DNA of 64,000 nucleotides from an uncultured Christensenella sp. (GTDB taxonomy: Bacteria; Bacillota; Clostridia; Christensenellales; UBA1242): positions 175,126-239,125 of the forward strand of contig CAYSUK010000001.1 in NCBI GenBank assembly GCA_964434265.1, read 5' to 3'. Below are positions 16,301-61,742 of this stretch, piece after piece. Under the pieces are notes generated by a model. It saw only the letters and a list, made by a program, of their open reading frames with translations, searched no databases and was not told the origin of the DNA. The position numbers were made by a program, and so were the translations under genes. Numbering within the stretch: position 1 is the stretch's first letter; each line of letters begins with the position of its first letter.

Positions 16301-18931
16301 ATGGCTGAATTCAAAACAATTATCGACAAAGAAAAGCTCACACCAATGATGAGAAAATATGTCGAGACAAAGGAAAAGTATGGCGAATCAATATTGTTTT
16401 ATAGACTTGGCGATTTTTATGAAATGTTTTTTGACGATGCCGAGCTTTGTAGTAGAGTGCTTGGACTTACGCTAACGGGCAAAGATTGTGGATTAGACAA
16501 ACGTGCACCTATGTGTGGAATTCCATATCATGCAGTCGATGGATATGTACAAAAACTTATAAGAGAAGGATATAAAGTTGCAATCTGCGAACAACTTTCT
16601 CTTCCTACAAAGGGCCCAGGTTTGGTCGATCGCGATGTGATTAGGATTATCACACCAGGTACAGTTATTGATTCAAATCTCGTAAAGGAAGACCGCAACA
16701 CTTTCCTTGTCTCACTTTTTAAATCTAAAAATAATGTAGGCATGTCATATATAGATATATCAACGGGCGAATTTTTTGTAAGCGAATTTACAGGCGATGA
16801 TGTTTTGTCTAGACTAAATGATTCGCTTATTCGTATTAGACCAAGTGAAATTATCTGTAATACCGAAATGAAAAAATGTACTGATTTGCCATGCCTAAGG
16901 GGAAAATACGTCCCAGATTTTGAAGAATATGACCAATCAAATTTTGACTTTGAATTGTGTAGTAATATATTGAAAAAACAACTTAATACAAATAATTTAA
17001 AATCATTTGGAATAGCAAATAAAACCTATGCAATAATTGCAGGTGGCAGCATACTTAATTATGTTAAAGAAACACAAAAACGTGATTTGAGTCATATAAA
17101 CAAAGTTCAGTTTGAAATACATGACGAATATATGCAAATAGATGGCAGTACTCGTAGAAATTTGGAGATAAGCGAAACTACTAAGGACAGACGTAAATAT
17201 GGTTCATTGTTGTGGTTGCTTGACAAAACAAAAACCAAAATGGGTCAAAGAACACTTACAAATATTATAGAACAACCATTGTTTAATGCGACAAAAATCA
17301 ATTATAGACTTAAAGGCGTAGAAGAACTTTATAAAAATATTGTTGCTCGCGAAAATATAGGTGGCATATTAAATAAAATATATGACATTGAAAGATTATG
17401 CGGTAAAATCAGTTACAACAATATAAGTCCAAAAGATTGTGTATCACTTAAAAATTCTCTTATGATGTTGCCGGAATTGCAAGTTGCACTAAATAGTTTT
17501 GAAAGTCAAGTCATGTGTGACATAAAACAAAATATTTGCAATTTTGACGATGTTGTATTATTGATAGACAATGCGATTAATGAAGAGAAGGCCACATCAA
17601 CTCTTAAAGATTATGGTTTTATAAAAGAAGGATATAATGCCGAACTTGACGAACTTAACAACATCTCGACTTCTGGACGCAATTGGATTATCCAACTTGA
17701 AGCTAGCGAGAAAGAAAGAACTAATATAAAAGGGCTAAAAATTGCATACAACAAGGTTTTTGGTTATTATATTGAAGTTCCAAACAGTCAAAAAGACCTT
17801 GTTCCTTTCAACTATATTAGAAAGCAAACCATTGTAAATGCTGAAAGATATATCACTGAAGAATTAAAAACTTTGGAAGAAAAGATATTACATGCAGAAG
17901 AAAATAGGGTGAATCTCGAACAAAAACTTTTTGCAGAACTAAGAGAAAAACTATTGGGTTATATTGTCAATTTGCAAAAAACATCTCAAGCAATAGCGTT
18001 GTTAGATGCACTTTTATCGCTGGCTACAGTTTCCGCAGAGCGAAACTATGTCAAACCTATCATTTCAAAATCAATCGATAGTATAGAAATAATCGGTGGA
18101 CGACATCCAATTGTTGAGGCACTAAACAAAGATGAAGATTTTATTCCAAACGACACCATTTTAAATAATGGTGATTCGCGAATTATGATTATCACTGGTC
18201 CAAACATGGCTGGTAAAAGTACATACATGCGTCAAGTTGCACTCATAACATACATGGCACATATAGGCTGTTATGTCCCAGCAACAAGTGCAAAAATATC
18301 ACTAACCGACAAAATATTTACTCGTGTAGGTGCAAGCGATGACCTTAGTTTCGGCCAATCGACTTTTATGGTGGAGATGAGTGAAGTAAGCAATATTGTA
18401 AAGAACGCAACAGACAAGTCGCTTATAGTATTAGATGAAGTAGGACGTGGAACAAGCACATTCGATGGACTTTCTATTGCGTGGAGTGTGATTGAATACA
18501 TTTCTAAAAATCTCAATTCAAAGACACTTTTTGCAACACACTATCACGAACTTACTGACCTTGAAGGAACTTTGGACGGAGTTAAAAATTATAGAGTAAG
18601 TATTAAGGAATACAACAATTCGATAGTATTTCTTCGTAAAATTGTGCGCGGTGGAGCAAACAAAAGCTTTGGTATTGAAGTGGCTTCTCTTGCTGGTCTT
18701 CCTGATGAAATACTAAATCGTGCAAGAGACATTTTGCACATGCTAGAAGAAAACGACCTAAATCACACACCAACAATACAGTCCACATCAAATGACAATG
18801 TCACCAAAAAGGATTTTAGAGCGCAAAACGAAATAATAGGAATACTCAAAGACACAGACCTAAACACTCTTACTCCGCTTAGTGCTTTTGATATATTAGT
18901 CCAACTAAAAAGTTATTTAAAAGACAAATAA
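16301..18931 (+). CDS. mutS: DNA mismatch repair protein MutS
   Basis: 876 aa with an N-terminal mismatch-binding domain (TPMMRKY...GDFYE) and Walker A GPNMAGKST. Confidence 0.97.
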   Translation: MAEFKTIIDKEKLTPMMRKYVETKEKYGESILFYRLGDFYEMFFDDAELCSRVLGLTLTGKDCGLDKRAPMCGIPYHAVDGYVQKLIREGYKVAICEQLSLPTKGPGLVDRDVIRIITPGTVIDSNLVKEDRNTFLVSLFKSKNNVGMSYIDISTGEFFVSEFTGDDVLSRLNDSLIRIRPSEIICNTEMKKCTDLPCLRGKYVPDFEEYDQSNFDFELCSNILKKQLNTNNLKSFGIANKTYAIIAGGSILNYVKETQKRDLSHINKVQFEIHDEYMQIDGSTRRNLEISETTKDRRKYGSLLWLLDKTKTKMGQRTLTNIIEQPLFNATKINYRLKGVEELYKNIVARENIGGILNKIYDIERLCGKISYNNISPKDCVSLKNSLMMLPELQVALNSFESQVMCDIKQNICNFDDVVLLIDNAINEEKATSTLKDYGFIKEGYNAELDELNNISTSGRNWIIQLEASEKERTNIKGLKIAYNKVFGYYIEVPNSQKDLVPFNYIRKQTIVNAERYITEELKTLEEKILHAEENRVNLEQKLFAELREKLLGYIVNLQKTSQAIALLDALLSLATVSAERNYVKPIISKSIDSIEIIGGRHPIVEALNKDEDFIPNDTILNNGDSRIMIITGPNMAGKSTYMRQVALITYMAHIGCYVPATSAKISLTDKIFTRVGASDDLSFGQSTFMVEMSEVSNIVKNATDKSLIVLDEVGRGTSTFDGLSIAWSVIEYISKNLNSKTLFATHYHELTDLEGTLDGVKNYRVSIKEYNNSIVFLRKIVRGGANKSFGIEVASLAGLPDEILNRARDILHMLEENDLNHTPTIQSTSNDNVTKKDFRAQNEIIGILKDTDLNTLTPLSAFDILVQLKSYLKDK

Positions 18932-18941
18932 AAGGATTTTT

Positions 18942-20855
18942 ATGGGAAGAATAAACATATTAGACAAAACAATATACAATCGTATTGCTGCAGGTGAAGT
19001 AGTTGAAAAGCCAGCAAGTGTAGTTAAAGAATTGGTAGAAAACTCAATTGATGGCGGTGCAACTCAGATTTCAATAGATATAAAAAATGGCGGCATTTCA
19101 CGTATTAGAGTAAGCGATAACGGTTGTGGAATAGAAAAGGACGACTTGATACCTGCTTTTATGCCGCACGCAACAAGTAAGATCAAAAACCTAAATGACC
19201 TTGATAAAATCGGCACTCTAGGTTTCCGTGGTGAAGCACTGGCTTCTATTGCATCAGTTAGTATGATAAGCCTTACTAGCAAGGTGTCAAATTGTGACGA
19301 AGGATATATGATAAAGGTTGAAGGTGGCGAACTAGGCGAAATCACACCTGTTGGCACAATAAACGGCACAACAATCATAGTTGAAAATTTATTTTATAAT
19401 GTGCCAGCACGTGCAAAATTTTTACGTAAACCACGCCAAGAAGAAACAGAAATCACAAACTATGTTTCACGTTTGATATTAGCAAACCCGAATATCGCTA
19501 TCAAGTATATTTGCGACAATAAGGTTGTTTTTCAGTCAAACGGCAACGGACTTTATGAAGCTATGTACAGCATATACGGCAAATCGATTGTTGATAATGT
19601 TGTGGAATACAATTATAGTGAAGGCGATTTCAGCTTTAGTGGTTATTTAGGACTGCCTACTTTTTCAAAACCTAATAGAACTTACCAAACGCTAATTATT
19701 AATGGTAGATATGTCATAAATCAATCAATATCTATGGCTGTATTTAAGGCTTATGAAAATTATATTATGAAGTCTACTTTTCCGTTTTATGTCATAAATC
19801 TAAACCTTCCATTAGATAAGGTAGATGTAAATGTCCATCCAAACAAACTTGATGTGAAATTTGAAGATAGCAACAAGATTTTTGGAATGGTATATACAAG
19901 TGTAAGTGAAATACTATCAAAGCTAATGCTAGTAAAGAACATATCTGACGTCCCTGATGAAATAGAAGAAAAACCCATAACATCTTCATCACTATACAAT
20001 GTAAATCAAAATGAAGGGCAGTCATACATTCCTGAAAAGCAAAGTGATGACGACATATCTGAAGTTGAGATAACTGAGAAAGAAGTAAAATCAGACGAAA
20101 ATTCTACTCTTTTTGAAGACAACTTCCGTCAAATAAAATCTTTCCTTACCAAAACGAAAGAAGGCGATTATAGTGTCGAAGACAATGATTTTGCCTATCA
20201 ATTAGCTGAAAAGATGACCCAACAACAACTTGATATTTTGCCAAAAGCGTCTGCTCAAACCGAACTCAAACTTGACATTACAGACTTTAAAATTCTTGGC
20301 ACCTTATTTAATACGTATATACTCATTGAAAAAGATGACTGTTTGTACCTTATCGACCAACATGCCGGACACGAACGTGTTTTGTATGACAAATTTAAGG
20401 CGCAATTAAAAGATTCAAGCATCGCTGTCCAACCTTTACTCATTCCATACATGCTAAATGTTAATGCTCAAGAATATGATTATTTGCATTCAAATTTGGA
20501 CGTGCTTGCAAAAATGGGTTGGGAATTGGAAGAATTTGGTCACAATTCCTACAAGGTAAATACTGTACCTGTATTACTTAAAAATATTAGTTTTAACACA
20601 TTTTTCAATGAAGTATTGGCAAACTTAAACAATCGACTTACATTAAACAACTCGACAGTTCTTGAAGATTATATTGCCAAATCAGCATGTAAGGCTGCTG
20701 TGAAAGCAAACGATATTTTAAGCGAAATGGAAATAAAAATTTTGCTTACAAAATTATCGTCAGAAAACCAAGTTTTGCTCTGTCCACACGGGAGACCTAT
20801 AATACTTAAGATTACGCAAAAAGACATTGAAAAATGGTTTAAAAGGATAGTTTAA
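18942..20855 (+). CDS. mutL: DNA mismatch repair protein MutL
   Basis: GHKL ATPase N-terminus (IAAGEVVEKPASVVKELVENSIDGGA) and a C-terminal dimerisation/endonuclease domain. mutS-mutL synteny. Confidence 0.95.
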   Translation: MGRINILDKTIYNRIAAGEVVEKPASVVKELVENSIDGGATQISIDIKNGGISRIRVSDNGCGIEKDDLIPAFMPHATSKIKNLNDLDKIGTLGFRGEALASIASVSMISLTSKVSNCDEGYMIKVEGGELGEITPVGTINGTTIIVENLFYNVPARAKFLRKPRQEETEITNYVSRLILANPNIAIKYICDNKVVFQSNGNGLYEAMYSIYGKSIVDNVVEYNYSEGDFSFSGYLGLPTFSKPNRTYQTLIINGRYVINQSISMAVFKAYENYIMKSTFPFYVINLNLPLDKVDVNVHPNKLDVKFEDSNKIFGMVYTSVSEILSKLMLVKNISDVPDEIEEKPITSSSLYNVNQNEGQSYIPEKQSDDDISEVEITEKEVKSDENSTLFEDNFRQIKSFLTKTKEGDYSVEDNDFAYQLAEKMTQQQLDILPKASAQTELKLDITDFKILGTLFNTYILIEKDDCLYLIDQHAGHERVLYDKFKAQLKDSSIAVQPLLIPYMLNVNAQEYDYLHSNLDVLAKMGWELEEFGHNSYKVNTVPVLLKNISFNTFFNEVLANLNNRLTLNNSTVLEDYIAKSACKAAVKANDILSEMEIKILLTKLSSENQVLLCPHGRPIILKITQKDIEKWFKRIV

Positions 20856-22434: not shown

Positions 22435-22475
22435 ATTATAAAACAAAATAGAACAAATGTCAAACATTTGTTCTA
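22435..22475 (-). promoter_or_regulatory. lexA promoter with embedded LexA operator; the same palindrome can terminate the upstream recombinase gene
   Basis: On the minus strand: TTGACA (22458-22463), 17 nt, then TATAAT (22435-22440). The -35 lies in the loop of a perfect 12-bp inverted repeat, TAGAACAAATGT/ACATTTGTTCTA (22449-22475). That repeat contains the SOS-like box GAACAAATGTTT. Confidence 0.6.
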
Positions 22476-23537: not shown

Positions 23538-23649
23538 CTAAGTATATTATACAGTAATTTTGTAATTTTGAAAAATATAATCACAACAAATGACAAAAAA
23601 TATAAAATATGTTATATTATTTTAAATATGAAAAGGTGAGTAACTGGTT

Positions 23650-24504: not shown

Positions 24505-24591
24505 TAAAAGTTTTAAATTTCATGTTGTAATATTTAAAATGGAATACAAAATAATTATTACTTATAAATACAATAAATAATAACTAAGAAG

Positions 24592-24617
24592 AAAACCGCT
24601 TAACAAAGCGGTTTTTT
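24592..24617 (+). terminator. rho-independent terminator
   Basis: AAACCGCT-taacaa-AGCGGTTT followed by TTTTTT. Confidence 0.8.
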
Positions 24618-24670
24618 AAATGAAACATAATATTATGCAAAACCCGATTGCATAGTAGTTTTTTAAGCCC

Positions 24671-24711
24671 AAACTATTCGTAAAAGTTGTCTTTTGCGAA
24701 TAGTTACTAAC
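24671..24711. repeat. left boundary repeat (putative attL), hairpin-forming
   Basis: AAACTATTCGTAAAAG-ttgt-CTTTTGCGAATAGTTACTAAC. The stem is CTATTCGTAAAAG/CTTTTGCGAATAG with 1 mismatch. It shares AAACT(T)ATTCG.AAAA...CTTTTGCGAATAGTT...ACTA with 29855-29901. Confidence 0.5.
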
Positions 24712-24831
24712 TGCACTTTTAATATATCACAGGACTCCACCCTTGTCAATTAAAAAATGAAAATATTTTTTATTTTCTTGTGAATATCTATTTTTTATGG
24801 TACACTACTCTAAAAAATAAGGAAGTATCAA

Positions 24832-25380
24832 ATGAAAAGAAAAAACAAAAAAGCATTAAGTTTAACTCTAAAAATAATATTTTGTTTATTATTCTGGTGG
24901 CTAATAATTATAGTAGCAATTATAAAATTAAATAACCAGAACAACAAAAAGACCACTACTCCAACCAACAAGCAATATGAAAGCAAGAGCCTACTAACCA
25001 ATTATGAAAAGTACTTTTATGATATCATAAGTAATGAGTTTTCAAATATGTATTATATCATGCCACAAGTAAACTTAGCGTCAATAGTAAACAAAATCAA
25101 GGACTTTCCTACTCAATATCAAAATGAATTATACCGAAATATTGACATAGGTATATTTGACAAGTCAAATATGACACCACTTTTACTAATTGAGATAAAT
25201 GACAAAACACATAACAACAAAAATCGGATAGCAAGAGACCATAAAGTCAAGGAAATATGTGACACAGCAAACATTCCACTAATAACATTTTATTCCAATT
25301 ATGCAAATAAAAAAGATTACATAATACAAAGAATAAAAGAAACACTAAGCAATAATTTGCCTAATGTTTCTAACAACTGA
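24832..25380 (+). CDS. membrane-anchored DUF2726-family (restriction-endonuclease-like fold) protein
   Basis: N-terminal TM helix. The segment LLTNYEKYFYDII...IMPQVNLASIV...NIDIGIFDK...PLLLIEINDKTHNN..RIARDHKVKEICDTANIPLITF matches the DUF2726 pattern. It converges on the Rep gene and overlaps its 3' end by 36 nt. Confidence 0.65.
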   Translation: MKRKNKKALSLTLKIIFCLLFWWLIIIVAIIKLNNQNNKKTTTPTNKQYESKSLLTNYEKYFYDIISNEFSNMYYIMPQVNLASIVNKIKDFPTQYQNELYRNIDIGIFDKSNMTPLLLIEINDKTHNNKNRIARDHKVKEICDTANIPLITFYSNYANKKDYIIQRIKETLSNNLPNVSNN

Positions 25381-26214
25381 CCAATAATCATATTCAGTCA
25401 CACTAACTATACTATTCATATCGAATAGTATTTTTTTAAATTTGTCTTGTTTTCCCCTACCCAACATTTTTAAATACATGTTAGAATTATCATTTTGCAA
25501 CAGTAACGATAATAAAACCTTATCAGTATCATTCAGATTAACACAATCAAATAAATTTACATTTTTTAAAAAATTTACAATAGGAAGTTGTTTCCTAAAA
25601 TTATCATAATCAAAACAATCAAGAGTAATCTCCAAACGAGTCAAATCATAATCAAGATTACTCTCTTTGGTTTTATTGTACAACTTTACAAAACCATTTC
25701 TATTCCTATGCCCAAGATATTCAGTAATACTATCAATATCAATACTCGCCTGCTCCACCTTGTAAATCTTATCATAATCTCTTAAATCTTTCATTAAACA
25801 ACAAAGTGACCTTTTACATTTTATATCAATAGCAAAATCATATCTCACAATCTCAATCGAACGACCAAAGTTTTTAATAAAATCAATAATAGGAGTTACA
25901 TAACAATTAGACAAACACTTATTAGGATTAAATTCGATAAAACAACTTTTACAATCACTTTTTTTACAACCATTAAAAAACAAACCAACAACAAATGAAT
26001 TGTCAAAGTACTTAAAATTTAGCATATATCTATACGAGAATAAAGCATAACTTTGATACATTTTAAAGTCGTATTTTTTATCTTTAAGACTCAAATCATT
26101 AACATAATCGTTAAATTGTTTACAAACATAATCATCAAAGCGAAAGACTATACGAACCATATCACAAGACAAAATCAAGTTATCACAAGTAATAACTGGA
26201 TTATAGTAATTCAT
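25345..26214 (-). CDS. rolling-circle replication initiator, Rep_trans family (RstA/pII functional analogue)
   Basis: Motifs IVRYDFAIDI, EYLGHRNRNGFVKLYNK and LTRLEITL fit the Rep_trans signature. Start trimmed to the ATG at 26214 (MNYYNP), 8 nt after AGGTGGAG. Confidence 0.7.
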   Translation of the reverse strand: MNYYNPVITCDNLILSCDMVRIVFRFDDYVCKQFNDYVNDLSLKDKKYDFKMYQSYALFSYRYMLNFKYFDNSFVVGLFFNGCKKSDCKSCFIEFNPNKCLSNCYVTPIIDFIKNFGRSIEIVRYDFAIDIKCKRSLCCLMKDLRDYDKIYKVEQASIDIDSITEYLGHRNRNGFVKLYNKTKESNLDYDLTRLEITLDCFDYDNFRKQLPIVNFLKNVNLFDCVNLNDTDKVLLSLLLQNDNSNMYLKMLGRGKQDKFKKILFDMNSIVSVTEYDYWSVVRNIRQIIA

Positions 26215-26250
26215 ATATTCTACTCCACCTTTATGTAATTTTTTACATAG

Positions 26251-26366
26251 TAGCACACCTATTAGACATAGGTGTGCTAGTCAAAGTGGCGGGATAACCC
26301 GCCACCCACCACACACCCGCCATATAATTAACCATTGACAAGCGGATGCTTGTGTACAACACAAGC
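26251..26366. promoter_or_regulatory. cluster of three GC-rich hairpins upstream of rep (candidate replication origin / packaging signal)
   Basis: Three stems: TAGCACACCTAT-tagac-ATAGGTGTGCTA (26251-26279), GTGGCGGG-ataa-CCCGCCAC (26286-26305) and GCTTGTGT-aca-ACACAAGC (26348-26366). This is locally the most GC-rich non-coding DNA in the element. Confidence 0.4.
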
Positions 26367-26497
26367 AATAATATCAGATCAGCCACAATTAAGAAAAGAA
26401 ACCACAACTATGTGTTTTCTTTTCAAGTATTAGCATATTACAACGATATAAATGTCAAAAAATTTGCAAGTTTGCAAAAAATTTGTTACACAAATTT

Positions 26498-26653
26498 CTA
26501 GTTTTTGACATCTATATCGTTATTATCAATAGAACTTACCAAAGTGTCAGAAGACACCTTTTTTGCTTTTTTCTTAGCAATAATAGTTTTAACAAGAACA
26601 TAGATTTCATAGCCCAAATAGCCACAAAGTCCAATCAATATAAAATATTTCAT
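26498..26653 (-). CDS. small (51 aa) single-pass membrane protein, not in the ORF track
   Basis: Hand translation gives MKYFILIGLCGYLGYEIYVLVKTIIAKKKAKKVSSDTLVSSIDNNDIDVKN. The ATG lies 5 nt after the Zot-like stop, with an AAGGTAAGG RBS. The size and TM helix fit the small minor coat or assembly proteins of inoviruses. Confidence 0.45.
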   Translation of the reverse strand: MKYFILIGLCGYLGYEIYVLVKTIIAKKKAKKVSSDTLVSSIDNNDIDVKN

Positions 26654-26658
26654 TTTAA

Positions 26659-27675
26659 TTACCTTACCTTTTCTATATTTTTAAAATCGCTAGTCAGCGG
26701 TTTATATATTTTCCTATGAGAGACTCTAAGCAATGTATATCTCTTCAATTCTGAAAAAACATTCTGAATATCCGTATATGGTACACTATTATATCTTTCA
26801 CTATAACAATACGTATCATATCTTTTTCGCAATGGAAACATACCAAAAGTCACTTTCATATTGTCTTCACTATTTTGTTGTTCAATCGTTTTAATATCTT
26901 CACTTAAAGATAACTCACGAATATTAACTTTATAAAACAATCCAAAATAACCTTTAAAATTCATTAAATTAAACACTTTATTTAATCTAACACGAATAGG
27001 CTTACAAATACTGTCACTACACTGTTCAGTACATATTAGGTAGCCACCACGGCTATAATGCCGAAATAAACGGACAAACTCGTCAAGAGCATATATAACA
27101 TTAGGATTATTATACTCGTATTGATTAACATACCCCCCTATCTCATCAAGAAAAACTATCGATTTATAATTGATATGCTTTTGCAATAACAAATAATCTT
27201 CGGTCAATTCTAACGAACTTTCAATAAATCTACTTACATCACGTCGTTTAATTAAATTATTCAATAACATAGACTCATAATCGACTCTCAAAATATATCG
27301 ACTAATTTTATCCTTGTTTTTATTATTATAATCAAGCCAATAAGAATATTTCAATTTAACTAAATTATACATATTAAACTTGACTCTTTTTTGTCGAATA
27401 AAAATAGGAATAGAACTATATAACATAGGTATTTCAGTAATAATTTGTTTTTTCTCTTTTCTAAATAAATTCAAAAAACGTGATTTAATATTACCAACCC
27501 TAATTTTAAACCTATTTTTTCTAAGTAATTTTATTGATTGTTGCACACCTTTAAAGGTTTTACCACTACCCAATCCACCAGTATATGCGATAATTGTGTC
27601 GTATTTTTCAAAATATGCTTTCAAAACAAGCCATATACATAATATACCTAATAAAATAATAATTATAGACCACAT
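26659..27675 (-). CDS. Zot / pI-like morphogenesis P-loop ATPase
   Basis: N-terminal TM helix then Walker A GGLGSGKT, and Walker B IVFLDEIG. Start trimmed to the ATG at 27675 (MWSIII), preceded by AGGTGAG. Confidence 0.7.
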   Translation of the reverse strand: MWSIIIILLGILCIWLVLKAYFEKYDTIIAYTGGLGSGKTFKGVQQSIKLLRKNRFKIRVGNIKSRFLNLFRKEKKQIITEIPMLYSSIPIFIRQKRVKFNMYNLVKLKYSYWLDYNNKNKDKISRYILRVDYESMLLNNLIKRRDVSRFIESSLELTEDYLLLQKHINYKSIVFLDEIGGYVNQYEYNNPNVIYALDEFVRLFRHYSRGGYLICTEQCSDSICKPIRVRLNKVFNLMNFKGYFGLFYKVNIRELSLSEDIKTIEQQNSEDNMKVTFGMFPLRKRYDTYCYSERYNSVPYTDIQNVFSELKRYTLLRVSHRKIYKPLTSDFKNIEKVR

Positions 27676-27683
27676 ACACTCAC

Positions 27684-28037
27684 CTACCACACCAGCAAAT
27701 TGTATGTACATGAGCATACAATTTTTATAATATATAACAACATTTCAATGCAATACACTAAAAACATCACAGCAAATACAACACATTCATATATAAGTTT
27801 TAGAGTAATCCAAATAACTTTTAGTACTTCATACCATTTACTATCTTCGTCATAATCTCCGTATTCTAGAAAAGTTTTTACAATTTTTTCAGTAGACGGC
27901 ATTTCAGGACGATTTTCAGCGGACTCAGCAACATTAGATAAATAATTTTCAAAACTAAAAGAACTTGTAGCATTATTCACACTAAATAGTGCAATAATAA
28001 CAACTAAACAAATAAAAACAACACCTAATTTACGCAC
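27684..28037 (-). CDS. phage membrane protein (signal peptide plus C-terminal TM helices)
   Basis: 117 aa. The start overlaps the stop of the upstream ORF by 1 nt (translational coupling). Hydrophobic N- and C-termini. Confidence 0.5.
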   Translation of the reverse strand: MRKLGVVFICLVVIIALFSVNNATSSFSFENYLSNVAESAENRPEMPSTEKIVKTFLEYGDYDEDSKWYEVLKVIWITLKLIYECVVFAVMFLVYCIEMLLYIIKIVCSCTYNLLVW

Positions 28038-28264
28038 TATCTTTTACCACCTTTTATATCTTTATATCGCATTATCTTTTGCAAAATTTTAAATGGGAGA
28101 ATTAAAAACAACCAAACAACGATATAACTTACAACACAAACATATAGTACCTTAAAAATATCTATATATTTAAATGACCACGAGCCAATAGTGCTATCAA
28201 GTAAATTCACATCTATAAAAACACCCAATATATCATTTATTAAGATATCAAACAAATTACACAT
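28037..28264 (-). CDS. small phage membrane protein (pVI-like size/topology)
   Basis: 75 aa with a central hydrophobic helix pair and a basic C-terminus. Tightly packed in the operon. Confidence 0.45.
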   Translation of the reverse strand: MCNLFDILINDILGVFIDVNLLDSTIGSWSFKYIDIFKVLYVCVVSYIVVWLFLILPFKILQKIMRYKDIKGGKR

Positions 28265-28274
28265 AATACACCTC

Positions 28275-29279
28275 CTACATAAGTTTTCTTATAACAAAGA
28301 ATACTAGCAACAATGACACAATAGCAATTAAAAAGTAACTCATATTGATACCGAATATTTCAAAATTAAATGCATTACTTAACACATTAAAAGGGGCATC
28401 AATTATAGAAAATATCAAATTTTTAAAAGTAGATTGACCGTTTACAGTATCAGACTCCCCCATATTATAACCATCTGAATAGCCTTGATTAAATCGATCA
28501 CTACCATAATCTATATATTGAGTTTTGTTATACATACCATAATCAGACGGATTTTGTTTGACGTTATCAATACCATCATTATATCCACTTTCATATCCAC
28601 TATCGTATGCATTATCGTATGCATTTTTAGATACCAAATCATAATCAGATGGATTGTCAGTTACTAAATGTGTACCATCACTTACACCAGCATTATACCC
28701 TTCTTCATAACCATAATTACTATCAAAACCATTATTATAGAAATAGCATGCAGAACTAATACAATTAGGCGCACAATATATTCTAGAACCATCAATTTTA
28801 TGAATAAAAACCAACCCCATAACATTTAGAGAATCAAAAAATGATGATAAAGAACTATCAATATTAGGATCATAAGTATTAACAGTAGGATATGTATATT
28901 TTAAAGTTACAAAATTATAAGAGTTTGAATGACTTAACAAAGTAAAATTATCAGGTATGATATCATTATAATAATCATACACATAATAATCATAATCAGT
29001 ATCATAATTTTTAAATGTAAAAGCGTAAAATTTAAAAGTATATGTACATGTTGAAGAAGAAACATCATGAGTCCAAGAAGACAGAGACAAATCTTCACTT
29101 AAATTCATATCATAACTCTTACCATATGGAGAGAAACAATATGTATTACTTATATTTAATGCACCTACAACTGCAACAATACTAAGCATAAGACACATAA
29201 TATAACTAAAAAGGTGGTATTTAGACACCACCTTTTTCTTATATATAGTGTCACAATTATTATTAAACATAATAGACAC
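28275..29279 (-). CDS. pIII-like minor coat/adsorption protein candidate
   Basis: 334 aa with an N-terminal signal anchor and a C-terminal TM anchor (YFLIAIVSLLLVFFVIRKLM). The middle region has Y/D/N/G-rich repeats (GYNxG...NPSDY). It directly follows the major coat candidate. Confidence 0.5.
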   Translation of the reverse strand: MSIMFNNNCDTIYKKKVVSKYHLFSYIMCLMLSIVAVVGALNISNTYCFSPYGKSYDMNLSEDLSLSSWTHDVSSSTCTYTFKFYAFTFKNYDTDYDYYVYDYYNDIIPDNFTLLSHSNSYNFVTLKYTYPTVNTYDPNIDSSLSSFFDSLNVMGLVFIHKIDGSRIYCAPNCISSACYFYNNGFDSNYGYEEGYNAGVSDGTHLVTDNPSDYDLVSKNAYDNAYDSGYESGYNDGIDNVKQNPSDYGMYNKTQYIDYGSDRFNQGYSDGYNMGESDTVNGQSTFKNLIFSIIDAPFNVLSNAFNFEIFGINMSYFLIAIVSLLLVFFVIRKLM

Positions 29280-29287
29280 CCCCTACA

Positions 29288-29506
29288 CTATCTATTGCGA
29301 ACCATACGAATTGCACCATATACCAAGCCAATAGCCATACTAATACCTAGAAATACTAGACCAAATTCAGCAACACTAGAAAGTACTTTTGTACTGGCTT
29401 CCGGGTCTTCATAAAGAATATTTAGAAAAGCCGTTTTTATACCACTAGCAAGATTTGTAATAGTAGTTGTAAAACCAGTGAATATTTTAGAAACTATATC
29501 TGCCAT
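29288..29506 (-). CDS. pVIII-like major coat protein candidate
   Basis: 72 aa. The C-terminal 40 aa show the classical inovirus coat layout: acidic EDPEAS, a hydrophobic helix AEFGLVFLGISMAIGLVYGAI, and a basic tail RMVRNR. Confidence 0.55.
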   Translation of the reverse strand: MADIVSKIFTGFTTTITNLASGIKTAFLNILYEDPEASTKVLSSVAEFGLVFLGISMAIGLVYGAIRMVRNR

Positions 29507-29697
29507 TAGTCAATAACACCCCCTTTTTCATCGTATTTGTGGAATTTTAACAAATACTTAAATAGTTTTTTGTTATCTTCCTTAACTTGTAGAGATATTT
29601 TTTCGCCGTCGATTATTGTGGACAACTCATAATACTCTACACATTCGCCGTCTTTTTCAAACGACTTTTTAACAATACACAAATCAAATTTTTTCAT
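29506..29697 (-). CDS. small phage protein (possible ssDNA-binding or regulatory protein)
   Basis: 63 aa, the first ORF of the structural operon, with a GGAGG RBS. Its stop overlaps the coat gene start by 1 nt. No recognisable motif. Confidence 0.4.
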   Translation of the reverse strand: MKKFDLCIVKKSFEKDGECVEYYELSTIIDGEKISLQVKEDNKKLFKYLLKFHKYDEKGGVID

Positions 29698-29791
29698 TTT
29701 TTAATACCTCCATATAAATTTTATTGTGTACAGATAATAACTACTTCGCAAAAGACACTATTTTGCAAACAATTTTTAATGATACACTATT

Positions 29792-37444: not shown

Positions 37445-37518
37445 AGGGGCGTAGTTCATCGGTAGAATAAGAGTCTCCAAAACTCCTGAGGAGGGTTCGA
37501 TTCCTTCCGCCCCTGCCA
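37445..37518 (+). tRNA. tRNA-Trp (anticodon CCA)
   Basis: Hand-folded cloverleaf. Acceptor AGGGGCG/CGCCCCT, D-stem GTTC/GAAT, anticodon loop CTCCAAA, T-arm GAGGG-TTCGATT-CCTTC, encoded CCA end. Confidence 0.85.
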
Positions 37519-37521
37519 TAT

Positions 37522-37554
37522 AAAAACACTCAGTTATTTGACTGAGTGTTTTTT
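37522..37554. terminator. bidirectional terminator (tRNA-Trp on +, LRR protein gene on -)
   Basis: AACACTCAGT-tatttg-ACTGAGTGTT flanked by A5 and T5. Confidence 0.75.
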
Positions 37555-37565
37555 ATTTAAATATC

Positions 37566-40328
37566 CTATTTTTCAGATAACTTTTTTATTTTGCTAGTAT
37601 AGTCACTCCAACCCGACACAGTCGTATTTACATATGTGTCATAATACTCATCAGGAACGTAGATAATAAGGTCATCGCTGTAACCAAAAAGGTTGTAACC
37701 CAATGTAGGCGGATTTGCCGAAGTAAATGTGATACTTGTAAGAGATGTATTACCACCGAATGCGCCCACGATACTTGTTACACTACTTGGGATAGTTACA
37801 CTTTTAATAGTTTTATTCTCATAAAATGCCCTTAGAATTCCATAACATTCAGGTATAGTAACATTTTCAGAAGTGCCTATATAATCTACCAGATATTTAT
37901 TTCCATCATTTCCAATTACAAATTTAAAATCACCTTCTGTCGTAATTTGACTAGTCCCACTTGTAGCCACTCTTACAGCATAATATGCTACACTACCATT
38001 ACTAGGACTACCAACCGTAATAGTTAGTGTAGATAAATTTATTACTTCTGCAAGGCGATAACATGAAGAGAATGCATTATAATCAATACTTGTTACACTT
38101 GCTGGAATAGTAATACTTGTGAGAGCTGAACAATTATAGAATGTATTATAATTAATACTTGTCACATTCTCAGGGATTGTGATACTTGTAAGTGATGTAC
38201 AATAATAGAATGCATAACTACTAATACTTGTCACATTCTCAGGGATTGTAATGCTTGTAAGTGATGTACAGCCTCGGAATGCATAATTATTAATACTTGT
38301 AAGTTGACTATTTTCAGCGAATGTCACACCTGTAAGCGCTGAACAACCATCGAATGCTTGCGAACCAATACCGGTTACACCACTTGGGATTGTGATATTT
38401 GTGAGTGATGTACAATTCATAAATGTACAAGGGGCGATATAACTAAGTTGACTATTCTCTGCAAATGTCACACTTGTAAGGGCTGTACAATCACTGAATG
38501 CCTGTAGATGGATACCTGTCACACTCGACGGGATTGTGATACTTGTGAGTGATGTACAGTTGTTGAATGCATTTTCACCAATACCTGTAACTTGCATTCC
38601 ATTGTGGCTTTCAGGTATAACTACTCTTGATATATTTTTACCTAGGACACCCAAAACTGTGACGCGGTCAGATAGAGTAAAATCATCTTGAAGAGTATAT
38701 ATAAAGCATAGCCTAGAAGAGTCGCTAGAAGTAATATTTGAAACTACGCAAGTAGACGATGTAGATAAACTTTGACCAGCAGTAACGTCGCTTGGGTCAT
38801 ATATCTCTACTACACAAAAATCAGTCAAATCAATGATAGGGATATTTAAAGTAACACTACCATTTTCAAAATTTCCAGCATCTAAATTAGAAATTGAACC
38901 ATATAAGCTATATAATATATCTAAAGCACTTACATATTTGAAATAATTTGGCAATACTAATACGCTTTTTGCTTTTGGGTTGTTTAAAGTAATGCTAACT
39001 ACTTCTAAATTTGATACTCGATAGTTTGTGTACGAATATGTAAGAGATTCAGTATCATATGAGTCAGTCATGATAGTTTGAGTGTTTGAAATATCACTAC
39101 CCAAACTATGCTTATCTGCTATCCAGTTTTGAGTAGTTTTTGTGGTGGTCATAGTCGAGTTGTTGTTTGAATACTTGACGGTTATACCAGAGATACCCAT
39201 AGCTTTAAGTTGACCCCCTAAAACATTGCTAGCTAATGCTAAAGTAAGTGACATCTCGCCATTGTCTAGATATGAGTTTGGAATAGTGACTGACACTACT
39301 CCATCGTCAGATGTCGTATAACAATCTTCTATCACTACAAGATTGGAATCTGCAAGTGCATCTTCATATGAAGCATACGAGCCTTTTACGACTATAAACT
39401 CACCCATCTCAATAACAGGCACTAGTGTTTGATCATCAGTACTGTACATCGACATCAAACTACTATCCACCATTACATATGGGAAATAGTCAAAAGTGAT
39501 ATCAAAGCCACTAGGTACATTTGATATATTGAGTGTGGAAATAATATAACCATATTCATATTCATCAGAACTAATTTTCATTGTCTCTACTACTTCAGTG
39601 CCAGTAGACTCGATAGTGGTAGTCTCGATAGTAGGCTCACCCAAAGTCAAGACTGACACACTTGGGCCTGATATACCTGAAAAGTCTTCAAAGTATGGTA
39701 TAAAGTCTACTATAGTAGTAGGTACTTCTCCGCTCTCGCTATGGATTAGGCTTTGGAGCACGATACCTGTCATAGTGATTGTACACTTTTGACCACTGGC
39801 CGAATTACCGAGTGAGTTTGGGAATGTGATAGGGACTGTGAATTTGATAGTAATACCGCTTGTGGTAGGTGTAAATACTTTTAGATTTGCTGTGTTTGAT
39901 TTTTCTGCTAGGTACAAGTCACCATTGTATACTACCATGACTGTATCTGTAGACTTTGTGCCATTGATAGTGACGTCATATGTACTACCTGCGGTGAGTG
40001 TAAGTTTTGCGCCCGTAGAGCCTGCTTTGAGTGATGGGATTACTTTTAGTACTCCGCTTGTAGGGTCGCCATCTGTTCCGTTTTTCACTACAAGTGTAGT
40101 CTCTACATCGACTGTTTGGCTAGGCACGACTGTGAGTCCGTCGCTAGTCGCGACTGACACACCATTCTCGCCATCAAACTCGATTGATGCACCGAGTTTG
40201 ATTTCTGTACTGCCACTCTTACTATCGCCAAAGAATGTGAGTGTTATGCCGACGGTCAGACCGACACAAGCGACTAGTATGAGTGCCATGCAAACTAGCA
40301 TTTTGTGAAATTTAAATTGACTCTTCAT
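37566..40328 (-). CDS. surface protein: SipW-type signal peptide + TasA/camelysin-like N-domain + central region + BspA-type leucine-rich repeats
   Basis: The N-terminus MKSQFKFHKMLVCMALILVACVGLTVGITLTFFGDSKSGSTEIKLGASIEF matches the TasA/CalY class of signal peptides (..GGTFAYFSD..). The C-terminal half holds about 9-10 LRRs of ~23 aa (FxxCTSLTSITIPxSVTSI). Confidence 0.8.
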   Translation of the reverse strand: MKSQFKFHKMLVCMALILVACVGLTVGITLTFFGDSKSGSTEIKLGASIEFDGENGVSVATSDGLTVVPSQTVDVETTLVVKNGTDGDPTSGVLKVIPSLKAGSTGAKLTLTAGSTYDVTINGTKSTDTVMVVYNGDLYLAEKSNTANLKVFTPTTSGITIKFTVPITFPNSLGNSASGQKCTITMTGIVLQSLIHSESGEVPTTIVDFIPYFEDFSGISGPSVSVLTLGEPTIETTTIESTGTEVVETMKISSDEYEYGYIISTLNISNVPSGFDITFDYFPYVMVDSSLMSMYSTDDQTLVPVIEMGEFIVVKGSYASYEDALADSNLVVIEDCYTTSDDGVVSVTIPNSYLDNGEMSLTLALASNVLGGQLKAMGISGITVKYSNNNSTMTTTKTTQNWIADKHSLGSDISNTQTIMTDSYDTESLTYSYTNYRVSNLEVVSITLNNPKAKSVLVLPNYFKYVSALDILYSLYGSISNLDAGNFENGSVTLNIPIIDLTDFCVVEIYDPSDVTAGQSLSTSSTCVVSNITSSDSSRLCFIYTLQDDFTLSDRVTVLGVLGKNISRVVIPESHNGMQVTGIGENAFNNCTSLTSITIPSSVTGIHLQAFSDCTALTSVTFAENSQLSYIAPCTFMNCTSLTNITIPSGVTGIGSQAFDGCSALTGVTFAENSQLTSINNYAFRGCTSLTSITIPENVTSISSYAFYYCTSLTSITIPENVTSINYNTFYNCSALTSITIPASVTSIDYNAFSSCYRLAEVINLSTLTITVGSPSNGSVAYYAVRVATSGTSQITTEGDFKFVIGNDGNKYLVDYIGTSENVTIPECYGILRAFYENKTIKSVTIPSSVTSIVGAFGGNTSLTSITFTSANPPTLGYNLFGYSDDLIIYVPDEYYDTYVNTTVSGWSDYTSKIKKLSEK
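38157..38277. repeat. near-identical 69-bp-period tandem repeat inside the LRR coding region
   Basis: ACTTGTCACATTCTCAGGGATTGT(G/A)AT(A/G)CTTGTAAGTGATGTACA occurs at 38157 and again at 38226. The copies encode TIPENVTSI..YCTSLTS. More diverged copies span ~37990-38600. Confidence 0.8.
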
Positions 40329-40540
40329 TAGTTTTCTCCATTTTTATTCTACCCATATATGGGTGGATTTATATATATTTATAAAGGTATATATGTAGAT
40401 ATATCCACATACTTTCCCCTACAAATCTATTTTACCCCCCCCCCCTATGGGGTGTGTCAAGCGATTTTGCATAAGTTGTGGGAAAAAGTGGTAGTTTTGA
40501 GTAGTTTTGGAGTGAAAACGGGAATGAGTTATGCACAAAA
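39686..40540. repeat. copy A of the duplicated promoter/leader/signal-peptide/TasA-like-domain cassette
   Basis: Aligns with 60873-61717. Similarity is detectable from ~39686 and is near-identical from ~39790 to 40540, covering the first ~180-213 codons plus ~210 nt upstream. Confidence 0.85.
40429..40460 (-). promoter_or_regulatory. promoter with poly-G tract in the spacer (copy A, G11)
   Basis: The minus strand reads TTGACA-caccccata-GGGGGGGGGGG-TAAAAT. The -35 is at 40455-40460, the -10 at 40429-40434, the spacer is 20 nt, and the C11 run on the + strand is at 40435-40445. Confidence 0.55.
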
Positions 40541-40571
40541 AAAGAACCACTTATATTTAAGTGGTTTCTTT
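40534..40571 (-). terminator. rho-independent terminator of rny
   Basis: Minus strand: GAAACCACTTA-aatat-AAGTGGTTC (one bulge) followed by T7. Confidence 0.65.
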
Positions 40572-47236: not shown

Positions 47237-47342
47237 AAAACCACCTAAAAAATAATAGACACTCAAACAAAAAAATAAACACATTTTATATAAATATTTT
47301 CAAAAAAATGCAACAAAATATAACTAAAATATGGAGGCATAT

Positions 47343-49553
47343 ATGTTTAAAAAAGTTTTAAAATACACATTAAGTATATTACTGGTATGCATAATTTTAT
47401 CTGGATGCACCAGTCAAACAACTCAAGCACAAGTTGGCAAAAATTTAGACAAAAAGTTATCAAACCTATATAGTGTTGTCAAAAACCTAGACACAATTGA
47501 CAATAACTATATAAACAACCCTGATTTACAAATCGTAAACAAAAACTCAAAAAGTGTAAAAAATATTGATAATTTCACAAATTTATCTTTAAACAATCTA
47601 AATAATAAAAACTACATTAAGTTTGAAAACGAAACAAATGAAGTAGAAGATATCATTCAAGAGATAGTGGTAAACGAGCTTGAAAAAAGGCTTAGTCTAA
47701 ACAATAATGGATATTGTAACAACTGTAACAATAATTATGTTTGCGACGAAGATGGCTATTGTGCAAATTGTCATAATGCCATGTTATGTAACGAAAATGG
47801 TAATTGTATTTCATGTAACAACAAATTAACATTAAACGATACAAATACTTGCGAAAACTGTGGTAAAAGTTATCTAACAGCCAAAGTAAGTCAATTAAAT
47901 AATACAAGTCTTGGTGATGATAATGATGCAGTATCTGAACAAACTATAAACGATATAGATGACACACAATATCACATCACTCCACTCTCGACAATCGACA
48001 ATATTGATGACATTAGCGCTACTGATAACATTAGAACATCAGATACTACATCAATCAATACAGAAAATAATAATGACATTTCAAACCCTGTTTCGGAAAA
48101 TACTACAACAAAAGAAAATTTAAATGACACTACTAATACAATTGCACCAAATGACTTAATCAACAATTACGGCAAAGTAGATACAGCAGAAACAACAACT
48201 CAAGAAAAAAATAATGACAATCAAACTATTGAAGAAAACAATGCCATTCCAGATTTAAGAATTTATTACTACACAAATGACAGTTTTTCTCCAGTCAAAT
48301 TAAGATACAATCCAAGATTTGTAAACAGCTATGATGAAAACAATATTAATCAACAACTATCCAATTATCTTTATAAAGTTCAAAGATTATATGCAATGAC
48401 AGAAGACGCCTTAGAAGCAAACAATATCCTTAACACAACAAAACAAGAATTATTGGAATTAATAACAGAAATTAGAGAACTAAATGAAAATATAACAAAC
48501 GGGACATGCACGGCCACAATACAACAACTACAAGCACTTACAAATTATACTAGCGATATTAAAAACACAATTAAGAACCTTAAAAAATGTAATGGCGATT
48601 TAGAAAATGAAGTCTCAAATATTAATTCAAATATACCAAGCACAATCGCATCAAGTGTAGATGTTATGAACAGTAATTATGTAAAACTGATAAATCTTAT
48701 CGATACTCGAATTACCTATCACGAGAGCGCAATCTCAACTTTAGAGCAAATCAAATACTTATTAGAAGACGCAATTAATAGTTCTAATATAAGTGAAGAA
48801 GAAGTAAAGGATATAATCGAACAATTAAGCAGTCAAGAACAAAATATTAATTCAGAAACCACCACAAACGATGTCATGCAAAACAACAATATCGAATATA
48901 TAATGGAAGACAACGAAGCAAAAAATTACATCGACAAGGAAGCAATAACAGGTAACAATACCGAGCAAGAAAGTAGTGATAATATAATAGATGTATCGAC
49001 TCAAAAAAACAATACTGAAGAGCAATCGAAAAAAGAAACCAGTAAGACAATTAAGAATATTGACACATACAAAACACCATCAAACAATCAAATCAATTAT
49101 GATGTAGTACCAGAAAATAATTTTGTTAAAAATAATATCGCAAATGAAAATGATGTCATTTCAAATTCTGGCGAAAACACGCAAAACTACGTAAATAATA
49201 ACAACAACTCAAGTATTATTGACAATAACTATAATAATAATGACACAAACTCCACTTATGATGTAAATTATAGTGGAAATACAAATAATAGTTTATTAAA
49301 CGAAAATTACTACAAAAATAGTGTGATTAATCAAAATAATTTAAATAATAACGATGGTTATGGTGGATATTATTATGCAAATGATGGTCAAATCCACAAC
49401 AATGGAATTAACAATAACAATGAATATGGAAATAATGGCAACACCATTGAAAACAACTTAAACAGAAATAATAATACAAACACATATGGCTACAATACAA
49501 TGCTCGACATAATTAATCAAGGCACTGTAAATAATGGAATAAACACATTATAA
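47343..49553 (+). CDS. low-complexity Asn-rich lipoprotein with a Cys-rich CxxC cluster
   Basis: Lipobox LSGC after a hydrophobic signal sequence, ten Cys in aa 129-177, and an N/T/D/I-rich remainder. Start probably the ATG at 47343 (MFKKVLKY) rather than 47331. Confidence 0.6.
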   Translation: MFKKVLKYTLSILLVCIILSGCTSQTTQAQVGKNLDKKLSNLYSVVKNLDTIDNNYINNPDLQIVNKNSKSVKNIDNFTNLSLNNLNNKNYIKFENETNEVEDIIQEIVVNELEKRLSLNNNGYCNNCNNNYVCDEDGYCANCHNAMLCNENGNCISCNNKLTLNDTNTCENCGKSYLTAKVSQLNNTSLGDDNDAVSEQTINDIDDTQYHITPLSTIDNIDDISATDNIRTSDTTSINTENNNDISNPVSENTTTKENLNDTTNTIAPNDLINNYGKVDTAETTTQEKNNDNQTIEENNAIPDLRIYYYTNDSFSPVKLRYNPRFVNSYDENNINQQLSNYLYKVQRLYAMTEDALEANNILNTTKQELLELITEIRELNENITNGTCTATIQQLQALTNYTSDIKNTIKNLKKCNGDLENEVSNINSNIPSTIASSVDVMNSNYVKLINLIDTRITYHESAISTLEQIKYLLEDAINSSNISEEEVKDIIEQLSSQEQNINSETTTNDVMQNNNIEYIMEDNEAKNYIDKEAITGNNTEQESSDNIIDVSTQKNNTEEQSKKETSKTIKNIDTYKTPSNNQINYDVVPENNFVKNNIANENDVISNSGENTQNYVNNNNNSSIIDNNYNNNDTNSTYDVNYSGNTNNSLLNENYYKNSVINQNNLNNNDGYGGYYYANDGQIHNNGINNNNEYGNNGNTIENNLNRNNNTNTYGYNTMLDIINQGTVNNGINTL

Positions 49554-51249: not shown

Positions 51250-51278
51250 TTGACAATGTCGATACAATATAGTAAAAT
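51250..51278 (+). promoter_or_regulatory. promoter of the tRNA cluster
   Basis: TTGACA (51250-51255), 17 nt, then TAAAAT (51273-51278). Confidence 0.55.
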
Positions 51279-59872: not shown

Positions 59873-61516
59873 CTACAGACTGAGTTGCAAAGCGGGAACA
59901 GCGCCGCTGATCGGATCGTTGACACCGTTGTAGTCGCCGACACAGCCCCCACCGACGCCGGACGCACAGTAGCCGCAGTTGTAACTAGGAGACCGAAGCC
60001 ACACGTCACCACTATCTATCAACATAATATACACATCGTAGTTTTCATCGCCTGGTGAAGGTTCGGTTCCGTCAAATAATAGTTGGATTAAATACTCCTT
60101 GGTATATGTGACTGCTTTTGTCGCTTTTGCATAGTCAGAAGTGCTCCATATACGGGCGGAATCAGACACAGTACGGTCAGAATTAAAGCCGTATGATGTA
60201 TTGATAAGGTCGGCATAACTTAGTGCAAATACATAGTCGTTTGTATCTTCACAAGTGTATGGGTTTTCACCACTAGAACTTGTATATGTGGTAGATACAC
60301 TGTTGTCTACTGTTGTAAGTTGGATAAGGGCCTTTTGGTCTGATGAAAATGATTTCTCATAGAAATCACCAGTAAGGAAACTACGTAATTCACTCCATTT
60401 ATAGTTATTTGCATACACTTGTGTTCCGTTGTCAGTCAATATATTACCCGACGAATCGGTAGCATAATAGTTACTACCGCTTTGAGTGTATTGTGATTGA
60501 TATGCCATTCCTTGGAGTATGGTGTCTGATGTTATCAGTGCTGTGCCGTCAGAATTACTTAGTATTCGCCATTTGATTGGCTCGACTTTAAAGTAGTAGT
60601 CATTGCCTACGGCTAGTGATGTAGTACCATCACTCATTAGGTTTAGTTTACATGTAGACCATGTATTCCAATCCATTCCGATAGCATCTTCGTCATATGT
60701 GTATGTGATTTTAGCATAACGTTCGCCGTCACTACCTAGATAGTATCCGTCAGAATCAGGTGTCGATGATGTGATTGTGACATCAGCCGATTTGATGGTT
60801 TGTGGGAATGAGCCAAATGTAATATATTTGCCGTCTTCGGATAGTTCATATAGACTCTCTGTAGGGGCAAGTTCTTCAAAATATGGCTGAAAGTCTACAA
60901 TTGTTGTGTCTACTTCTCCATTTTCGCCATAGATTAGGCTTTGAACTACTACTCCTTTCATGGATATAGTACATTTTTGACCACTGGCTGAATTACCGAG
61001 TGAGTTTGGGAATGTGATAGGTACTGTGAATTTTATAGTAGTTCCGCTTGTGGTAGGGGTAAATACTTTTAGGTTTGCTTTGTTTGAATTTTCTGCTAGA
61101 TACAAGTCACCATTGTACACTACCATGACTGTATCTGTGGACTTTGTTCCATTGATAGTGACGTCATATGTACTGCCTGCGGTGAGTGTGAGTTTTGCAC
61201 CCGTACTACCTGCTGTAAGTGATGGGATTACTTTTAGCACTCCGCTTGTAGGGTCGCCATCTGTTCCGTTTTTCACTACGAGTGTAGTCTCTACATCGAC
61301 TGTTTGGCTAGGCACTACAGTAAGTCCGTCGCTAGTCGCTACTGACACACCATTCTCGCCATCAAACTCGATTGATGCACCGAGTTTGATTTCCGTACTG
61401 CCACTCTTACTATCGCCAAAGAATGCGACAGTAAGTCCGATAGTTGCACCGACGCATAGGACTAGTATGAGTGCCATGCAGACTAGCATTTTGTGAAACT
61501 TAAATTGACTCTTCAT
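59873..61516 (-). CDS. surface protein paralog: SipW-type signal peptide + TasA/camelysin-like N-domain + DUF6273-like C-terminal domain
   Basis: The first ~213 aa are almost identical to 37566-40328. The C-terminal part carries ITFGSFPQT..., VEPIKWRIL, WSELRSFL, VWLRSPS and ...VPALQLSL, a pattern I recall for the family labelled DUF6273. This needs HMM confirmation. Confidence 0.8.
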   Translation of the reverse strand: MKSQFKFHKMLVCMALILVLCVGATIGLTVAFFGDSKSGSTEIKLGASIEFDGENGVSVATSDGLTVVPSQTVDVETTLVVKNGTDGDPTSGVLKVIPSLTAGSTGAKLTLTAGSTYDVTINGTKSTDTVMVVYNGDLYLAENSNKANLKVFTPTTSGTTIKFTVPITFPNSLGNSASGQKCTISMKGVVVQSLIYGENGEVDTTIVDFQPYFEELAPTESLYELSEDGKYITFGSFPQTIKSADVTITSSTPDSDGYYLGSDGERYAKITYTYDEDAIGMDWNTWSTCKLNLMSDGTTSLAVGNDYYFKVEPIKWRILSNSDGTALITSDTILQGMAYQSQYTQSGSNYYATDSSGNILTDNGTQVYANNYKWSELRSFLTGDFYEKSFSSDQKALIQLTTVDNSVSTTYTSSSGENPYTCEDTNDYVFALSYADLINTSYGFNSDRTVSDSARIWSTSDYAKATKAVTYTKEYLIQLLFDGTEPSPGDENYDVYIMLIDSGDVWLRSPSYNCGYCASGVGGGCVGDYNGVNDPISGAVPALQLSL

Positions 61517-61717
61517 TTATTTTCTCCATTTTTATTCTACCCATATATGAGTGTGATTTATATATATTTATAAAGGTATATATGTGGATATATCCACATA
61601 CTTTCCCCTACAAACATATTTTACCCCCCCCCCTATGGGGTGTGTCAAATGAATTTGGCTAAGTTATAGAAAAAAGTGGTGGTTTTGGAGTGAAAACGGG
61701 AATGAGTTATGCACAAA
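60873..61717. repeat. copy B of the duplicated promoter/leader/signal-peptide/TasA-like-domain cassette
   Basis: Aligns with 39686-40540 in the same (minus) orientation, 21 kb away. Near-identical from ~60977 to 61717. Confidence 0.85.
61618..61648 (-). promoter_or_regulatory. promoter with poly-G tract in the spacer (copy B, G10)
   Basis: Minus strand: TTGACA (61643-61648)-caccccata-G10 (61624-61633)-TAAAAT (61618-61623). The spacer is 19 nt. Confidence 0.55.
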
Positions 61718-61742
61718 ATAAAAAGACGAGCTAGTCGTCTTT
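61715..61742 (-). terminator. terminator of scpB
   Basis: AAAGACGA-gctag-TCGTCTTT, followed on the minus strand by TTTTATTTT. Confidence 0.55.

Follow-up and report, generated by a model that had tools for sequence, protein, structure and literature searches.

Guanine tracts in the promoter spacers of two paralogous genes for predicted surface proteins suggest spacer-length phase variation in an endospore-forming Firmicute

Two paralogous genes in the 64-kb stretch of DNA analyzed here (the window) carry a run of ten or eleven guanines between the -35 and -10 hexamers of their putative promoters. Does such a tract act as a length-variable switch of expression, or is it a fixed element of the promoter? 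Re-reading of the minus strand reproduces copy A exactly as it was given in the preliminary description of this DNA, in sequence, coordinates, and spacer length. At 40460..40429 it reads TTGACA-CACCCCATA-GGGGGGGGGGG-TAAAAT with a spacer of 20 nt, in which the -35 hexamer (40455..40460) is followed by the non-repeat part of the spacer, CACCCCATA (40446..40454), the G11 homopolymer proposed as the hypermutable tract (40435..40445), and the -10 hexamer (40429..40434). The paralogous promoter, described beforehand as otherwise identical with G10 and a 19-nt spacer, is confirmed on the same strand at 61648..61618. Here, flanks identical to those of copy A enclose the G10 tract (61624..61633), with the -35 TTGACA at 61643..61648 and the -10 TAAAAT at 61618..61623. 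In copy A, the C-run of CACCCCATA and the start of the G-tract form an inverted repeat, and this CCCC-ATA-GGGG dyad can indeed pair with itself as had been suggested. Centered on positions 7-9 of the 20-nt spacer, the dyad shifts relative to the -10 with the tract length of copies A and B. Further upstream, 5' of the -35, copy A contains a 10-nt tandem duplication (CAAAACTACT CAAAACTACC; 40486-40508, minus strand) that is missing from copy B.

Long G/C runs are exceptional in this DNA. A homopolymer census finds runs of at least 7 only in copies A and B, followed by a single run of 6, in agreement with the rarity noted earlier. G8 is matched seven times in the window as compared to 0.10 expected from shuffles, and the hexamer pair TTGACA-N15-21-TAWAAT occurs six times as compared to 0.92 expected. 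Related loci totaling ~100 kb again have G/C runs of at least 7 at promoters of the family only, so that the survey, together with the window, covers ~164 kb. Copies A and B are not independent occurrences, because both sit in one duplicated unit of ~0.9 kb, which begins just after the rny or scpB terminator, takes in ~85 nt of DNA before the -35, and ends near codon 215 of genes A and B. Moreover, the alignment of the two copies contains two further indels besides the G10/G11 difference. Hence, the one-nucleotide difference between the paralogues, previously read as a signature of slipped-strand mispairing, persists as a difference, while its value as a signature is weak when taken alone.

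The hexamers flanking the tracts are the best candidates for the functional promoter. A scan for sigma-70-type promoters with a 16-18-nt spacer returns none in either intergenic region, while shuffles give 1.7-1.9. Two alternative -35 elements were rejected: ACACAC, 17 nt from the -10, has 0 of 6 consensus matches, and GACACA, at 18 nt in copy A or 17 nt in copy B, has 3 of 6 and lacks TTG. Intrinsic terminators of rny (40545..40566, minus strand) and scpB (61722..61742, minus strand) lie upstream of copy A and copy B, respectively, and are predicted to shield genes A and B from upstream read-through. The window also provides reference promoters, namely TTGACA-17 nt-TAAAAT of the tRNA cluster (51250..51278, plus strand), with the same hexamers as copies A and B, and TTGACA-17 nt-TATAAT of lexA (22435..22463, minus strand). 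Based on this 17-nt spacing in the tRNA and lexA promoters, the host sigma-A appears to use such hexamers at canonical distance. TTGACA/TAAAAT is the only sigma-A-type promoter candidate that we find for genes A and B, with a transcription start site predicted accordingly.

Between promoter and gene extends a leader of ~100 nt. In copy A, its predicted 5' end folds into a long imperfect hairpin (40377..40426, minus strand; MFE -26 kcal/mol, z = -3.2) with the core ATGTGGATATATCTACAT at 40410-40393, while the corresponding hairpin of copy B (61564..61617, minus strand; z = -3.8) contains the perfect palindrome ATGTGGATATATCCACAT. The core of the hairpin is the palindrome TGTGGATATATCCACA, in the form ATGTGGATAT/ATATCCACAT when both leaders are considered. 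A search against Rfam matched tRNAs only and no family in the leader. The hairpin may serve as a 5' mRNA stabilizer or as a palindromic operator and thereby add a second layer of control. Related half-sites, ATATCCACA and ATATGTGGATA, are present in the leader of the homologue on contig L003 (~75-95) and directly after the scpB terminator at the end of contig L025. A second, small palindrome or hairpin, TCCACCCATATATGGGTAGA (40348..40367, minus strand), is located just 5' of the ribosome-binding site GGAG of gene A (40339-40336, minus strand), which precedes the first ATG by 8 nt. Public gene calls for the two paralogues, P0001 (911 aa) and P0044 (538 aa), begin at Met10 (window 40301-40328 and 61489-61516). 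This start removes the K-rich, positively charged n-region that is present in all homologues and ignores the GGAG 8 nt before Met1. The true start of both paralogues is probably Met1.

Both genes are predicted to encode secreted or surface proteins. The product of gene A (37566..40328, minus strand; 920 aa) has an FFGD motif in its signal-anchor and combines a TasA-like N-domain (~215 aa) with leucine-rich repeats of the BspA type. In gene B (59873..61516, minus strand; 547 aa), an N-domain 90% identical to that of gene A is followed by DUF6273. The C-terminal parts thus differ as Pfam-type modules, BspA LRR_5 in gene A and DUF6273 in gene B. Members of the family share a K-rich n-region, a transmembrane segment, and then a (T/M)(L/M)A(Y/F)FG(D/G/S) motif. 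The latter resembles the SipW-type AYFSD/AAFND motif, and the NCBIfam model TIGR04088 matches 1 of 19 members with a marginal E-value of 0.0033. No Peptidase_S26/SipW-like gene is found among the window ORFs scanned, and such a gene may reside in another part of the genome. AlphaFold2 models the N-domain as a beta-sandwich (pLDDT 86.8). In the PDB, this model comes closest to the TasA fibre (8aur_A, E = 4.4e-5, TMq only 0.35), with archaeal TasA-like filaments also listed. A profile search against PDB sequences gave no matches. Because of the low TM-score, the TasA-like fold of the modeled domain is suggestive rather than proven. A third paralogue, P0002 (827 aa), is encoded on another NCBI contig (108 kb). 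Its C-terminus resembles that of gene A, and its N-domain alternates in blocks between A-type and B-type residues, a mosaic that indicates recombination or gene conversion within the family. Proteins of this kind, secreted, modular, adhesin-like, and recombining, are typical targets of contingency switches.

The surrounding genes characterize the host. Genes A and B are directly flanked by rny, rnhA, scpB, and the gene of a small membrane protein, in a wider context of rny, rnhA, thiI, spoVA, yunB, the sigF operon, the tRNA cluster, scpAB, and ytfJ. The window further holds dacB, recA, mutS, mutL, and lexA. From these housekeeping and sporulation genes, the host is a low-GC endospore-forming Firmicute equipped with mismatch repair. 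Intact mutS and mutL, followed by miaA, are located upstream of lexA (16301..20855, plus strand); mismatch repair would damp slippage at the tracts but not abolish it. Two side observations concern other parts of the window. A tyrosine integrase gene (22479-23537) adjoins lexA. After it, within window 22479-29700, comes an island with a GC content of 25-28% and a strongly negative GC skew, along with a DUF2726 gene and several ORFs that Pfam leaves unmatched; this region is probably an integrated element. A 740-aa ORF (47331-49553, plus strand), for which Pfam gives no match, is embedded in low-GC DNA rich in ATGACA-N17/18-AACAAT-like repeats; relatives retain it beside spoVA, as a 690-aa product in L020.

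Members of the N-terminal domain family are scarce, with 40 matches among 1.84 billion representatives in an exhaustive HMMER search. We read the contigs of four homologues, L001, L002, L003, and L005, of which the diverged L001 and L002 come from metagenomes. L001, whose N-domain is ~62% identical, has the promoter TTGACA-CACCCGGGGGAGGGGGGG-TAAAAT with a spacer of 18 nt, while L002 has TTGACA-CACCCCCTAGGGGGG-TATAAT with a spacer of 15 nt. The -35 hexamer of both is identical to that of copies A and B. At the homologous position of L003, a 10-kb ENA contig, the sequence stops within a G7 run ~115 nt 5' of the ATG. In the more distant member L005, poly-G gives way to AT-rich repeats and a small divergent HTH gene; only a subclade of the family thus carries the tract. 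Alignment of the promoters reveals conservation of the -35, a CACCC motif, the terminal G's (at least 6), the -10, and ~25 nt upstream of the -35. CACCC is shared by all four complete promoters, A, B, L001, and L002. All length change between the spacers of 15, 18, 19, and 20 nt is confined to the C/G-run segment. Among the complete promoters, only L001 with 18 nt falls into the 16-18-nt range (1 of 4), a proportion that fits a family mostly in the OFF state and equally a promoter that ignores the 17-nt rule. That CACCC and at least six G's beside the -10 are conserved might mean that the sequence itself matters, and not length counting alone.

Two of these contigs hold further details. On L001, the gene 5' of the homologue (2-1447) ends in ...FEVDANNTIFDTENGKLIKK, the C-terminal motif of the BspA-LRR members P0005 and P0006, and family genes thus stand in tandem in this organism. 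The reading frame of homologue P0004 on L002 is broken at a T8 run (~610-630) in the codons of the conserved FFGD signal-peptide motif and would be restored by T7; the site marks either a sequencing error or a second slippage site, here at the level of translation.

Alleles of the same loci were sought through the neighbors rnhA, rny, and scpB, and the related contigs gave none that includes the promoter. In the closest relatives (L016 5734-6001; L020-L024), the region corresponding to window 37445-40545 has the order rny-terminator-tRNA-rnhA without gene A. We conclude that gene A and its promoter were inserted between the rny terminator and the tRNA gene in a lineage-specific manner. Other related contigs stop in the multi-copy tRNA, and the single relative found for locus B stops 47 nt past scpB, before the promoter. 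With the N-domain as query, a word-indexed protein search, scans of GTDB genomes, and a scan of JGI metagenomes gave no matches. Likewise, a viral contig scan gave no matches, and scans of GTDB genomes with the promoter pattern TTGACACACCCN{0,12}GGGGGGTAWAAT gave none. The sole JGI metagenome match to this pattern (L004) is an unrelated sequence without a family gene and was set aside as a chance hit. Exact-protein look-ups of the products of genes A and B and of P0002 found nothing on record.

Taken together, we favor spacer-length phase variation of the porA/tp0126 type as the best reading of both tracts, with a probability of roughly 55%. It is preferred because the hexamers are conserved, the length of the C/G-run between them is variable, and runs of at least 7 occur only at these promoters. 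Conserved hexamers around a length-variable homopolymer are what a spacer switch predicts, while a fixed binding site would predict the opposite. The earlier proposal of a candidate phase-variable promoter is thus upheld by its anatomy, the conserved hexamers, the variable C/G segment, the lack of any other promoter, and the predicted secreted products, whereas switching itself, hypermutability and length heterogeneity of the tracts, and length-dependent expression are what we infer from these features. In such a mechanism, slipped-strand mispairing at G10 or G11 during replication would add or remove G's and so alter the distance between -35 and -10. G8 would set a spacer of 17 nt and full ON expression, G7 and G9 (16 and 18 nt) would give intermediate levels, and G10 or more (19 nt or more) would be low or OFF. 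In the sequenced consensus, genes A and B would both be low or OFF. Since each paralogue has its own tract, the two would switch independently and give rise to mixed surface phenotypes.

Which other explanations could account for the tracts? The G-rich spacer might belong to a promoter type peculiar to this family, conserved for its structure or sequence and not switching on ecological timescales. Its length differences would then reflect slow evolutionary drift or assembly error, and control would be exerted by a repressor at the leader palindrome or via mRNA stability through the 5' hairpin. The persistence of CACCC and at least six G's abutting the -10 across diverged homologues agrees with such a fixed element, as do the intact mismatch repair genes and the strong conserved palindrome or hairpin just 3' of the -10, the half-sites of which recur in L003 and L025. 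However, the spacer varies in length (15, 18, 19, and 20 nt) while the hexamers are conserved, a sigma-A promoter should be severely impaired by a 19-20-nt spacer, and G runs of 10-11 are intrinsically unstable, to our knowledge in every bacterium tested (for Treponema, see PMC7864442). We consider a fixed spacer unlikely, albeit with a claim that deserves weight. An artefact of assembly or sequencing, with both copies being of equal length in reality, would account for G10 versus G11, as homopolymers of 10-11 are error-prone on all platforms. Against this improbable explanation, no genes of the window are frameshifted despite many A/T runs of up to 8-9, and gene lengths agree with those of relatives. 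Moreover, it bears solely on the argument from G10 versus G11 and leaves the existence, position, and family-wide conservation of the tract untouched.

Spacers of 19-20 bp with an internal inverted repeat are a hallmark of MerR-family promoters such as merT, copA, zntA, and soxS, in which copies A and B, with spacers of 19 and 20 bp around a dyad, find a parallel. A regulator of this type would bind the spacer and untwist the DNA to realign -35 and -10. This activator-remodeled promoter is quite improbable here, since the spacers of 18 and 15 nt in homologues do not conserve the 19-20 bp, and the dyad is off-center and moves with tract length. Further, no MerR-family gene is nearby, as judged from 51 of the 59 window ORFs of at least 60 aa that were scanned or placed by synteny; the Pfam scan for the MerR domain covered 49 window ORFs. 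A sporulation sigma factor could be considered as well, since sigF, spoIIAB, and spoIIAA lie within the window. The B. subtilis sigma-F -10 consensus is GGnnAnAHTR, and the -10 with its adjoining G's matches it in A, B, L001, and L002. In that case, GGGTAAAATA would be a sigma-F -10, and the last G's would belong to the -10 instead of the spacer. Yet neither copy has a GYATA-like -35 14-16 nt upstream, the conserved -35 is a perfect sigma-A element (TTGACA), the consensus finds no match in L003, and secreted adhesin-like proteins are untypical of the forespore. Sigma-F control is thus highly improbable.

The preferred reading, spacer-length phase variation, has well-described counterparts. In T. 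pallidum, tp0126 carries poly-G between -35 and -10 and works best with a spacer of 17 nt, and tprL is active with G8 and near background with G10 (PMC7864442). In N. meningitidis, the spacer homopolymers of the surface antigen genes porA (poly-G) and opc (poly-C) set promoter strength via spacer length (PMC7864442). Our locus resembles T. pallidum tp0126 and tprE/G/J/L in having poly-G (7-11 in Treponema) within the promoters of paralogous surface-protein genes, with the tract common to a paralogous family, and, as for tprL G10, the G10 and G11 tracts predict an OFF state. In contrast to Treponema, the host is an endospore-forming, low-GC, mismatch-repair-proficient Firmicute and not a spirochete, the products are TasA-like/BspA-LRR/DUF6273 secreted proteins and not outer-membrane porins, the G-run follows a C-run with which it makes up a palindrome, and length variation is a prediction from sequence. 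With porA and opc it shares the homopolymer within the -35/-10 spacer of surface-protein genes, but it belongs to another phylum and another gene family, and for porA a series of alleles is documented across isolates. A further parallel exists in the Firmicute-related lineage of Mycoplasma hyorhinis, in which the paralogous vlp surface proteins are switched ON and OFF combinatorially by poly-A in each promoter spacer. Both systems equip each gene of a paralogous surface-protein family with its own spacer homopolymer; there it is poly-A in front of lipoprotein genes of a wall-less host, here poly-G.

The phase variation known to us from Clostridia-like spore-formers works by DNA inversion. If our reading is true, the present locus would add homopolymer spacer-length phase variation in such a spore-former and the first phase-variable TasA-family fibre or adhesin. 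Host group and gene family are unusual; because the mechanism itself is textbook, the gain would lie in taxonomic and gene-family breadth and not in principle. The tracts also matter for metagenome assembly, because contigs break at them. Beyond the single promoters, we tentatively propose, as a somewhat less than even prospect, a small "phasome" in this uncultured, mismatch-repair-proficient, endospore-forming gut Firmicute, made up of portable cassettes that switch independently by slippage in the conserved, palindromic C-run/G-run spacer. Each cassette would consist of the poly-G promoter, the hairpin leader, and the TasA-like export/fibre domain, and would have been inserted behind terminators of housekeeping genes and recombined with adhesin modules (BspA LRR, DUF6273). 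The family presents itself as a compact natural module in which promoter, leader, and export domain are combined with interchangeable binding domains. If true, commensal spore-forming Firmicutes would share the contingency-locus logic of Neisseria, Treponema, and Campylobacter to diversify surface fibres and adhesins, which would have a bearing on the evasion of IgA and phages by gut colonizers.
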